From Gemmatimonadaceae bacterium (GTDB taxonomy: Bacteria; Gemmatimonadota; Gemmatimonadetes; Gemmatimonadales; Gemmatimonadaceae): a DNA stretch of 64,000 nt. The notes under the pieces are model-generated. The model was given only the letters and a program-made list of their open reading frames with translations, was not told where the DNA came from and did not search any database. Of this stretch, positions 45,121 to 47,481 are shown piece after piece. The stretch is taken from positions 960,001-1,024,000 of the forward strand of contig JBJMOW010000005.1 in assembly GCA_045803545.1 (NCBI GenBank), read 5' to 3'. The stretch's first letter is position 1, and every line of letters begins with the position of its first letter. The position numbers were made by a program, and so were the translations under genes.

Positions 45121-46437
45121 TCAGGCAGAAACGGCTGCTCTCAAAACCGTGCCACGCTCAGGTGTGCGGACCTCCCAGTCACCCTCTTGGGCAAGCGTTG
45201 CAAATAGCTTTGCGAAATCAGCACTGCGAAGAAGTGCGTCACAGATGGCTGGATCGAATTGCGTGGCTCTGAAGCGAAGCAATTCTTTGCGCACAGACTG
45301 CGCATCAAGCGCGGCGCGATAGGGACGATCGGTCGTCATCGCATCAATCGTATCCGCGAACATTATGATGCGAGAGCCAAGCGGAATTGCGTCACCCTTC
45401 AGGCCATCAGGGTAACCCGTGCCGTCCCAGTTTTCGTGATGGTGACGAATGAGCGGCACGACGTCTCTCAGTTCTGTGACCTTGGATGCGAGTTCTGCGC
45501 TCTTGACTGGATGCGTACGCATAATGACTTGCTCTTCCGGCGTCAGTCGCCCTGGCTTGCTGAGGATTGGGCCGAACACTTCATGGATTTTGCCTACGTC
45601 GTGCAAGAGCGCGGCGGCAACAATCCGCTCGATTTCGCGCGTGCTCAATCCGAATGACTTCGCGATGACTCGAGCCTTGTCAGCGACACGCCGAGAGTGT
45701 CCCGACGTATACGGGTCCCTGGCCTCTATTGCGGCAACCATTAACTCGAGCAACTCTCGATTCGTTTGTTCGAGTTGGCCTGTCACCTTGTAAAGCTGGC
45801 GCAAACCGAACAAAGGAATCGCAAAGACGAATACCCCAACTGGGCCGAATTTCGAATAGGTCCAGACAATCAGGAGAATGGCGGGCAGCGAAAGAAAATC
45901 ATATGGCAGAGCACGGAACGTGTTCTCTTTCCAAATCGCCCACACGCTTCTATCACCAACGATGCCGAGAGCCCCGCTAACGCAAATGGTATTCGTCATA
46001 AAGAAGACGAGGAACAGAGCGAACAGCGAGGGAGAACTGGATTCGGCGACACTGTGGAGCGGGACGCCGCCTATTGCAAGGTAGGTTAGAATCGCGAGCG
46101 ACATCCCGAGAGTTTGCTGTGCCGCATTGAAGACCGCGCGGATCGCTTCTCGCTTGGCAATCATCTGCCCGGCGAGCGAAGCTACGGCGACGACGGCGAC
46201 TGTTAGCCAGTGTGGCGCAATTGCCGCGCTCGCAAGCACAGGAATAAAAGACACCGACCCGAGAGAGCCATGACCGGTGCGGTAGGCGAAGAGATTCGTC
46301 AAAACTCCGACGAAGCCGAACGTCAACGCTGCCTGAGCAAAGGGCAACGCGAACGAGGGATCTCTCACAAACACGGCTACGCCTCCGCCGACAGCGGCGA
46401 TGCAAACTAGGAGAACGTAGCGGGCAATTCTGCTCAT
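45121..46437 (-). CDS. multi-TM (MASE9-like) membrane sensor fused to HD-GYP phosphodiesterase
   Basis: About 7 hydrophobic helices, then RDPYTSGHS, LHDVGK, HHENWDGTGYP, RPYR. Confidence 0.9.
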   Translation of the reverse strand: MSRIARYVLLVCIAAVGGGVAVFVRDPSFALPFAQAALTFGFVGVLTNLFAYRTGHGSLGSVSFIPVLASAAIAPHWLTVAVVAVASLAGQMIAKREAIRAVFNAAQQTLGMSLAILTYLAIGGVPLHSVAESSSPSLFALFLVFFMTNTICVSGALGIVGDRSVWAIWKENTFRALPYDFLSLPAILLIVWTYSKFGPVGVFVFAIPLFGLRQLYKVTGQLEQTNRELLELMVAAIEARDPYTSGHSRRVADKARVIAKSFGLSTREIERIVAAALLHDVGKIHEVFGPILSKPGRLTPEEQVIMRTHPVKSAELASKVTELRDVVPLIRHHHENWDGTGYPDGLKGDAIPLGSRIIMFADTIDAMTTDRPYRAALDAQSVRKELLRFRATQFDPAICDALLRSADFAKLFATLAQEGDWEVRTPERGTVLRAAVSA

Positions 46438-46460
46438 AATTGGAAAACCCCCGTACTCGG

Positions 46461-46511
46461 CTACCACAGGATTGTGTCAGGGAAACACCATCTCAAAAAG
46501 GCAGCAAACAT
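46461..46511 (-). CDS. unannotated 16-aa peptide MFAAFLRWCFPDTILW
   Basis: GGGAGGTGA SD 5 nt before ATG; stop lies 23 nt upstream of the HD-GYP gene start. Confidence 0.6.
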   Translation of the reverse strand: MFAAFLRWCFPDTILW

Positions 46512-46752
46512 TCGCGTCACCTCCCAAAATTCAGTCGCATCGAGCATTCGCTACGACGCGCTACATGGTTGGCTCCGCTCTTGTAACTAAGTTTGCCCGC
46601 TCAACTCGTCTCTAAGCCGGGAACGGGGGTTTTGTATTCCTATAGAATCCGTGTTAAAGGTGAAATCGCTTACACAGACAGTTTTTTACCAGATCTGACT
46701 AGATCTGCTTTCCACTTCCACCTTCTAGCCTGCACCGACTCCTTGGAGTCGC

Positions 46753-47481
46753 TTACTCTACCTGATCGACCCAGCGATTCGTTGCCGCCAGGACTGCCAG
46801 AGCGCTCGCTGTTTCCGCGCTCCCTTTGATCTCACAATTACCTACAAGCAATTGGCTGTCTCGTCCAGCCCGAACTGTCACTCCCACAAAAACGTACTCG
46901 CGATCGAAGGCCTCCATCACCTTCACACCCTCCACCGCCAGCTGTCCTTCCCTGCCCTCCGCACTGCCAATCGCGAATACCGTCGCGCGCGCTGCTAAAT
47001 CGAGTCGACTACGGTCGCCCTCGATCCCATGGGCTTCACCTATGAACGACTCCTCACCCTTCCGCAGCGTAACTCGGCAGGAAACCCCCTTGCTGCGACT
47101 GCCCCGCACCTCGACATCCTCGAAGTACAGCCGCCTGCCGGTGTATTTTCGGACCCCCTCGGCGGGCGTAAACTGCGGCGCCACGAACTGAGTGTGCGGC
47201 GTCGGCCGAGCGGCCTGCGGTTTTGGCTTCGGCTCACTGGTGATCGCCACCGAGATCTTCCGATGATCCACCCGCATCGCCAGGTGCGCCATCAACGCGC
47301 TCTCGATGTTGCGCACCACCTGCTTCGGCGTGAGCTCCGCCGTCGTCAGCACATGAATCTGTTCGACCGCGCCACTCTCACTCTCGATGATCTTTGCCGA
47401 AACCACTCCCGGCAGCGTGAGAATGAGCTCCTCGGCACGCTTGATCGGGAGTACGCTGCCGGCGATGTTGTTCAAGTTCAA
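46753..47481 (-). CDS. conserved hypothetical protein
   Basis: LPGVVSAKI..IHVL..PKQVVRNIESAL..VDHRKISVA...LAATNR; good coding pattern. Confidence 0.8.
   Translation of the reverse strand: MNLNNIAGSVLPIKRAEELILTLPGVVSAKIIESESGAVEQIHVLTTAELTPKQVVRNIESALMAHLAMRVDHRKISVAITSEPKPKPQAARPTPHTQFVAPQFTPAEGVRKYTGRRLYFEDVEVRGSRSKGVSCRVTLRKGEESFIGEAHGIEGDRSRLDLAARATVFAIGSAEGREGQLAVEGVKVMEAFDREYVFVGVTVRAGRDSQLLVGNCEIKGSAETASALAVLAATNRWVDQVE

Follow-up and report, generated by a model that had tools for sequence, protein, structure and literature searches.

The small gene considered here lies on the minus strand of a 64,000-nt window (the whole stretch of DNA analysed, from a Gemmatimonadaceae bacterium), between a gene for a conserved hypothetical protein and a gene for a membrane sensor, and is enclosed by a folded leader RNA. 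From upstream to downstream, the features of the locus are as follows.

46753..47481, minus strand: gene for a 242-aa conserved hypothetical protein, with an N-domain at residues ~7-82 and a C-domain at residues 116-239
46615..46633, minus strand: 5' arm of P0, a long-range helix enclosing the leader and the small ORF (two-sided changes at 11 of 12 pairs)
46571..46613, minus strand: AG-CG-(G/A)A repeats with a 5-nt period, kept in sequence across phyla, the first unit being degenerate in the window
46514..46578, minus strand: stem P1, formed between 46578-46567 and 46525-46514 and interrupted by tandem GA mismatches, with the Shine-Dalgarno (SD) sequence buried
46533..46562, minus strand: hairpin P2 within P1, containing an invariant bulged A (two-sided changes at 6 of 7 pairs)
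46517..46525, minus strand: SD sequence GGGAGGTGA of the small ORF, separated by the spacer cgcga from the ATG at 46511
46461..46511, minus strand: 16-codon ORF encoding MFAAFLRWCFPDTILW, starting with the ATG at 46511; predicted mature tail DTILW
46444..46462, minus strand: 3' arm of P0; no SD-like run other than its G-run precedes the sensor gene at this locus
45736..46437, minus strand: MASE9 membrane sensor domain and linker helix (Pfam match; model of a relative)
45121..45735, minus strand: HD-GYP phosphodiesterase domain with intact motifs (Pfam and motif check)

A purine-rich spacer with two short hairpins (46752-46640, minus strand) lies between the upstream gene and the leader, and these hairpins are kept in close relatives (L002-L004, L017 and L291) though the sequence differs. 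Further upstream are a gene for an exported protein of 642 aa that contains a CarboxypepD_reg domain (50206-48278, minus strand) and a penicillin-binding protein 2-like gene, recognised by eye (52846-50996, minus strand). Two exact 3' fragments of tRNA-Pro(GGG), 57 and 45 nt long (45076-45020 and 41974-41930, minus strand), whole copies of which occur elsewhere in the genome, look like attachment-site scars; they bound a 280-aa ORF (44930-44088) and several short ORFs, beyond which lies a set of genes that by eye resembles a type I restriction-modification system (41781-36772).

The 438-aa sensor matched the Pfam family MASE9 (PF20972) at 27.3 bits against a cut-off of 24.3, or 29 bits in a genome profile search in which it was the sole MASE9 match of the window's genome, and HD_5 at 118.5 bits. 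In the available part of the MASE9-defining study, HD-GYP domains are characterised by an HD motif, HHExh(D/N)GxGYP and an N-terminal acidic loop residue (10.1101/2021.11.05.467447). All three are found in the sensor, in which EARDPYTSGHSRRV, LHDVGK, HHENWDGTGYP and DTIDAMTTDRPYR occur at residues 238, 278, 333 and 362, in agreement with the intact HD-GYP domain of the initial annotation, and breakdown of c-di-GMP is predicted from these motifs. The membrane domain was likewise recovered, but a hydropathy scan detected six segments above 1.6 where about seven transmembrane helices had been proposed. MASE9 was defined by Galperin and Chou, who inferred intramembrane ligand binding; the available text of their paper names no ligand and describes no small gene, leader RNA or upstream partner (10.1101/2021.11.05.467447). 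The domain pair and the catalytic motifs are common to the window sensor and other MASE9-HD-GYP enzymes, such as those of the Thermotoga TM1467 type and HdgA of Streptomyces venezuelae. According to the available part of its description, HdgA is membrane-bound and poorly expressed, its study revealed no phenotype, and the authors suspect that an activating signal was missing under their test conditions (PMC6205966).

Re-reading of positions 46525-46461 (minus strand) gave the 16-codon ORF, SD and spacer as first described, and the distance from the ORF to the sensor ATG (46437) was re-measured as 23 nt. When the upstream scan of sensor homologues that had been proposed was carried out on the best 80 relatives of the sensor, nearly all titled Gemmatimonadota, an SD-led ORF of 16-35 aa was present in 76; the other four comprised three loci beginning too close to a contig end and one that is interrupted. 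Trp, which played no part in choosing these ORFs, was the last or second-last residue in 69/76, compared to 6/142 GGAGG-led short ORFs used as controls from the window's own genome. A peptide terminating in Trp is the exception rather than the rule, since Trp is second-last in 64/76 and last in just 9/76, and five of the 76 peptides from these homologous loci have no Trp among the last five residues. In 72 close pairs from 35 loci, pairs that are not independent of each other, 299 single-base codon changes were synonymous and 238 non-synonymous, and differences at codon positions 1, 2 and 3 numbered 346, 228 and 514. Judged by this coding-like evolution, the small ORF is a real, conserved gene under selection at the amino-acid level.

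The encoded peptides share a motif consisting of a hydrophobic front, a small residue and then (D/G/E)-x-x-x-W-(x), with D, G or E at position W-4 in 61 of the 69 Trp-bearing peptides. The Gemmatimonadota peptides (16 aa in the window) contain over 60% hydrophobic residues and are amphipathic, without a basic N-region; K and R make up 2.8% of their residues, unlike standard signal peptides. Cyclisation through Cys, as initially envisaged, found no backing: Cys occurs in 12/76 peptides, with no fixed position, so that ring closure is not a general rule. AgrB was not found in the locus or, by profile search, in the 93%-complete genome, although the genome-wide blank is weak because no control genome exceeded the cut-off. 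A mobile repeat was also considered and ruled out, the element being single-copy per genome; a second, divergent full cassette with a different peptide occurs in one genome that already has one (L285, G097:C8), which may provide two channels within one cell.

The C-rich arm of P0 (46633-46615) and its G-rich arm (46462-46444) enclose ~190 nt (z -3.8 versus shuffles). Across homologous loci, the shuffle control for the long-range duplex gave z < -2 in 38/67 and was too crude, and pair counting was used instead: in 61 aligned elements, 86.7% of cells pair, as compared to 42-50% with slid partners. Several P0 and P2 pairs also head an unguided mutual-information list. Covariation in these alignments establishes P0 and P2 as helices, and G-U changes point to the sense-strand RNA as the folded element. 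Stem P1 pairs GCG-GA-GCC-AA-CC with GG-GA-GGU-GA-CGC and has 91% of cells paired; being nearly invariant, it has weak covariation support. As P1 includes the SD strand, the SD of the small ORF is buried, and the length and conservation of this SD, which had been singled out for its strength, are partly due to its pairing within the stem. The most conserved letters are AG at a 5-nt period (208 observed versus 120 expected), and at least three AGCG(G/A) units precede 60/62 ORFs versus 352/7182 genome windows. Single-stranded display of the AGCG(G/A)A units was considered, and the predicted pairing of their GCG (0.6-0.8) speaks against it; the units may act as a DNA operator.

No Rfam family was found on the leader at gathering score in 31 sources (11 + 20), nor by E-value, and a resemblance to the c-di-GMP-I core noted by eye was set aside, there being no score to support it. 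Neither a sigma-70 promoter nor a terminator was found at the element. Going by its alignments, the leader is an undescribed, cross-phylum RNA element. Contigs of close kin, placed from eight RNA runs, cover the leader and the ORF, and 11 RNA runs contain 5-7% of the sequence words. In one run, most pieces lie inside 46445-46635, one of them ending at 46445 in adaptor, and other pieces cross both ends of the element, one entering the sensor gene. The ~190-nt element may be a separate, stable message; the RNA contigs are a weak hint, because they are blind to level, strand and ends and because conserved DNA draws more relatives.

The regulatory leader that had been named as the alternative to a peptide/receptor pair gains from the position of the ORF inside a conserved RNA structure. 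In its ribosome-only form, translation of the ORF would melt P0 and free the sensor start by coupling or attenuation, and the peptide would be a by-product. The strong covariation of P0, the 3' arm of which starts at the stop codon, is consistent with such an arrangement, as are the concealment of the SD of the ORF by P1 and, in Gemmatimonadota, the end of the P0 G-run mostly 10-15 nt ahead of the sensor ATG, where an SD is expected. It is nonetheless a rather improbable account of the locus, in which the Trp codon is single and not universal and P0 is followed by no U-tract consistent across homologous loci, and it leaves unexplained the amino-acid-level selection as well as the signal-like N-termini and protease-tail motif described below. 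Translational coupling may operate as a second layer in Gemmatimonadota. A trpL-type attenuator was rejected on the single Trp codon near the stop, the lack of a terminator call and the lack of a constant U-tract.

The folded RNA could instead be a riboswitch-like sensor of a ligand, possibly c-di-GMP or an amino acid, and the main device of the locus, with peptide and sensor merely regulated. The AG repeats persist across phyla, as do the invariant unpaired or mismatched letters of P1 and P2, and neither TRAP nor CsrA (PF02081 and PF02599) was detected in the genome (93% complete; controls positive), which fits a sensing RNA and led to the rejection of TRAP/CsrA control. Given the lack of an Rfam match and a peptide motif that would be left unexplained, this is very unlikely as the main function, and a riboswitch-like RNA would be compatible with a peptide ligand as an upstream layer. 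Messages of the hok/AapA type, which are closed by 5'-3' pairing, hide the SD and encode a short hydrophobic product, resemble the element in all these respects. A type I toxin-antitoxin-like unit is nevertheless scarcely probable here, since the element is single-copy per genome, is flanked by the same two genes across phyla, and encodes a peptide without a charged C-terminus and with a tail that matches protease repeats.

The gene for the 242-aa protein was present in 55/55 loci with enough upstream DNA. In its structure model (pLDDT 87), the whole C-domain has the allosteric fold of LeuA/citramalate synthase (Foldseek E 1.8e-5 to LeuA; Z 9.7, rmsd 3.1 and 110 aligned residues with 3f6g), and the N-domain is of a common alpha/beta type (CDF-CTD/BolA/ring-building, Z ~9) with conserved basic residues. 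The protein might bind the leader or an amino acid. At the sequence level, Pfam LeuA_dimer matched only 1/62 members of the family, searches of PDB and NCBIfam gave no match and those of the Atlas unnamed clusters only, and a weak search found no fused long forms among 8000 candidates. Across 121 genomes of the window's phylum, the upstream protein and MASE9 share their distribution by family, both being missing from family f10 (0/11) and from the single-contig f6 and f7 genomes; MASE9 was detected in 63/121, its weak profile missing some carriers, and the upstream protein in 95/121, a count that includes distant paralogues. Among 14 further copies of the upstream gene, the four followed by MASE9 carry 3-5 repeats and a Trp-ended ORF, and the other ten have 0-2 units. 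Stand-alone LeuA-like C-domains of ~135 aa are common in the phylum (L290, L294, L295, L296 and ~50 more matches), three copies preceding a lipoprotein-like gene that by eye resembles a lytic transglycosylase. In some Gemmatimonadales (L122, L123 and L124), the gene for the upstream protein is separated from the leader by an additional receiver-like ORF, recognised by eye.

The four-part cassette of upstream protein, leader RNA, small ORF and sensor extends beyond the Gemmatimonadota. In the Bacillota Natranaerobius and Subdoligranulum, an upstream homologue, the enclosing helix, repeats, a small ORF and MASE9-HD-GYP follow each other in the same order, and are followed by a DUF5317-type membrane gene (L130:3996-4503 and L202:4845-5408). 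DUF5317 and MASE9 match the same two control genomes (Thermus and Thermotoga), DUF5317 was not found in the window's 93%-complete genome, and the DUF5317-type protein is a candidate processing or partner protein. In a Natranaerobius plasmid record (L130:2705-3996) and in genome G038 (L289), what looks like a frameshift breaks the sensor gene, with leader and peptide intact; these splits may be assembly errors. A first metagenome scan found nothing; 80 loci were then recovered via the upstream protein, of which 63 non-redundant ones with at least 600 nt downstream were kept and 17 dropped. These loci, which have no taxonomy and a GC content of 27-69%, encode MASE9 in 55/63 cases, and a hydrophobic short ORF was present in 53 of these 55 (that of L270 looks spurious), whereas the four loci lacking both MASE9 and GYP had no such ORF and 0-1 repeats. 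One distant cassette is preceded, at a distance of 1.3 kb, by a raiA RNA (L241:970-1237; RF03072, 161 bits). Gemmatimonadota-type cassettes also occur on short contigs in records titled as other phyla (L001, L022, L024, L025, L027, L040 and L069), for which mis-binning is as likely as transfer.

The distant ORFs carry K or R within the first five residues in 53/57 cases, and in 49/57 the hydrophobic stretch ends in an AGGA/ASA/YGA-type sequence followed by a tail of 2-27 residues (for example WMKW, MFKI, TAKWH or KRVYYPNRWD...), so that most of these peptides resemble signal peptides to which a short tail is attached. Trp is among the last five residues in 28/57 and an aromatic residue among the last six in 48/57. 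In 28/53 distant loci, and likewise in Natranaerobius, the sensor gene has an SD-like run beyond the bounds of P0. This speaks against a general role of P0 in locking the sensor gene and counts against the ribosome-only reading.

A motif related to the peptide tail was found in a second setting, in 61 genomes from the phylum of G121, a record titled Acidobacteria. In this sample, 10/21 MASE9 matches had an S8 protease with a Trp-repeat tail at most 1.5 kb upstream, the outputs of the paired MASE9 proteins being HD-GYP-GAF-GGDEF, GGDEF, a kinase or none, and about half of the MASE9 matches had no evident peptide source. In five genomes chosen for containing such pairs, with 36/68 S8 matches examined, MASE9 lay within ~4 kb downstream of 16/25 Trp-tailed S8 genes versus 0/5 tail-less S8 genes checked; the remaining 9/25 Trp-tailed proteases had no MASE9 nearby. 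The consensus of the tail unit, from 276 units, is D-x-Φ-Φ-W-(G/S/T); DTILW of the window is one letter away from the units DAILW, DTLLW and DTALW, and 17/69 peptide tails differ from a protease unit by no more than one change, none being identical. The motif of the candidate ligand thus appears to track MASE9 and not the output domain. The earlier description of the module as not built on a kinase holds at the window locus and is limited to it, because MASE9 is also joined to kinases elsewhere. The five protease-pair genomes contain no upstream 242-aa-type protein, and three repeats were found in 0/20 sampled loci, so that the upstream protein and the repeats belong with the micro-gene form. 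Very short ORFs containing either a single Trp unit or three of them occur between protease and MASE9, or alone before MASE9 (L136:999-1109, L137:1241-1273, L140:1212-1268 and L143:1284-1313, oriented to the MASE9 gene; for example MHMTPIVVWG). A GNAT acetyltransferase gene directly follows several Trp-tailed S8 proteases (L145, with PF13302, L169, L173 and L181; genome G134) and once sits between the protease and a MASE9-kinase; this enzyme could modify or inactivate released Trp units.

Between the conserved flanks, the peptide and MASE9 diverge together. Mean identity in 36 loci is 54% for the upstream protein, 31% for MASE9 and 61% for HD, and between the window and L004 the corresponding values are 91%, 31% and 77%. 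With the flanks removed, tail similarity in the 36 loci follows MASE9 (partial r 0.24, permutation p 0.008; HD -0.16), a small partial correlation the significance of which is overstated by kinship and by linked recombination of adjacent DNA. As judged from these alignments, the joint divergence reproduces the specificity-group pattern of agr and comQXP, in which a variable peptide-receptor block lies between conserved flanks. Searches of the Atlas and PDB with the MASE9 sequence gave no usable match. In a model of MASE9 from a relative (L006, pLDDT 92.9), the first nine Foldseek rows were ECF S-components, with TM-scores to target of 0.45-0.66 and E-values of 0.026-0.26 that are not significant. 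The ECF S-component fold has an outward ligand pocket, and an outward pocket of this type in MASE9 is a lead offered by the model.

It is also conceivable that the peptide remains uncleaved in the membrane of its producer and acts on MASE9 as a small subunit or modulator, comparable to MgrB with PhoQ, with no diffusible signal. The hydrophobic, amphipathic Gemmatimonadota peptides without a basic N-region would suit this role, no processing enzyme is encoded in the locus, and the co-divergence of peptide and MASE9 fits equally well. On the other hand, the signal-peptide-like ends and polar tails of up to 27 aa in distant relatives, and the secreted-type proteases, in which the Trp unit recurs 3-21 times without a membrane helix for each copy, make a resident membrane subunit unlikely.

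The best explanation, with a probability of about 60%, is that the small gene encodes an exported, processed peptide ligand of MASE9 that alters c-di-GMP breakdown. Following translation, the hydrophobic front half would take the precursor into the membrane, where a general protease would cut off the short Trp-containing tail, here likely DTILW. The freed tail would bind the neighbouring enzyme at its MASE9 domain, in a pocket like that of S-components, and change c-di-GMP hydrolysis, an increase being somewhat favoured over a decrease. The enclosing RNA would meter peptide synthesis by hiding the SD of the small ORF; the most promising candidate for opening this RNA is the upstream protein with the LeuA fold. 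The peptide/receptor pair of the initial annotation is strengthened by the signal-like relatives, the Trp motif of the protease tails and the joint divergence, but the partner is MASE9 and not HD-GYP as such. With all parts taken jointly, a multi-phylum circuit can be sketched tentatively, although it is doubtful that the whole would hold: a vitamin-transporter-derived MASE9 receptor for short aromatic peptides, released from micro-genes or shed protease tails, would be wired to c-di-GMP enzymes or kinases in strain-specific pairs, and in the micro-gene form an amino-acid-sensing LeuA-type protein would bind the AGCG(G/A)A repeats of a self-closed ~190-nt mRNA and decide when the peptide is made.

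For MASE9, an orphan sensor that occurs from Thermotoga to Streptomyces, a five-residue ligand candidate is now proposed. If correct, this would link a gene-encoded peptide directly to the turnover of c-di-GMP, with neither kinase nor transcription factor in between, suggest strain-specific cell-to-cell signalling in an abundant, little-studied soil phylum, and account for the odd Trp-repeat tails of a large group of subtilases. The analysis also adds a cross-phylum RNA element not described before, along with a candidate regulator. No report of peptide-MASE9 or protease-MASE9 pairing was found in the openly readable portion of the literature.

Among known systems, AgrBDCA, ComCDE and ComQXPA resemble the cassette in having a tiny precursor with a hydrophobic leader and short tail encoded beside a membrane receptor, and in the hypervariable peptide-sensor block; a Trp near the end is found as in ComX. 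Their receptors are histidine kinases acting through response regulators, whereas the receptor here is MASE9 with c-di-GMP hydrolysis as output, and the window locus differs further in lacking AgrB, a prenyltransferase, an ABC exporter and a conserved Cys, and in having the ORF enclosed in structured RNA. The Agr-type Cys/Ser five residues from the mature end is not conserved among the 76 peptides, and within the locus no ComQ prenyltransferase was found beside the peptide gene, which is flanked by the genes for the 242-aa protein and MASE9-HD-GYP. ECF S-components (RibU, FolT, BioY and ThiT) are possible fold relatives of MASE9, heading the Foldseek comparison of its model with E-values that are not significant, and unlike them MASE9 is fused to signalling enzymes with no ECF module nearby. 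TRAP and CsrA leaders also present repeated short purine units upstream of a hidden SD, but their binding proteins were not found here, there are just 3-5 units, and between a quarter and a third of them have GAA in place of GGA. The RRNPP peptides (SHP/ComS and Phr/PapR; compare PMC10075063) are likewise derived from short hydrophobic precursors, which have an acidic residue where cleavage probably occurs and a mature tail of 5-7 residues. Their receptors are cytoplasmic TPR proteins that require re-import of the peptide, in contrast to the integral membrane sensor encoded next to the small ORF, and no TPR family was found on either neighbour of this ORF. Membership in the Agr, ComX, RRNPP, attenuator or known riboswitch families is thus contradicted by their defining features, and the cassette likely works in the manner of membrane-receptor peptide signalling.
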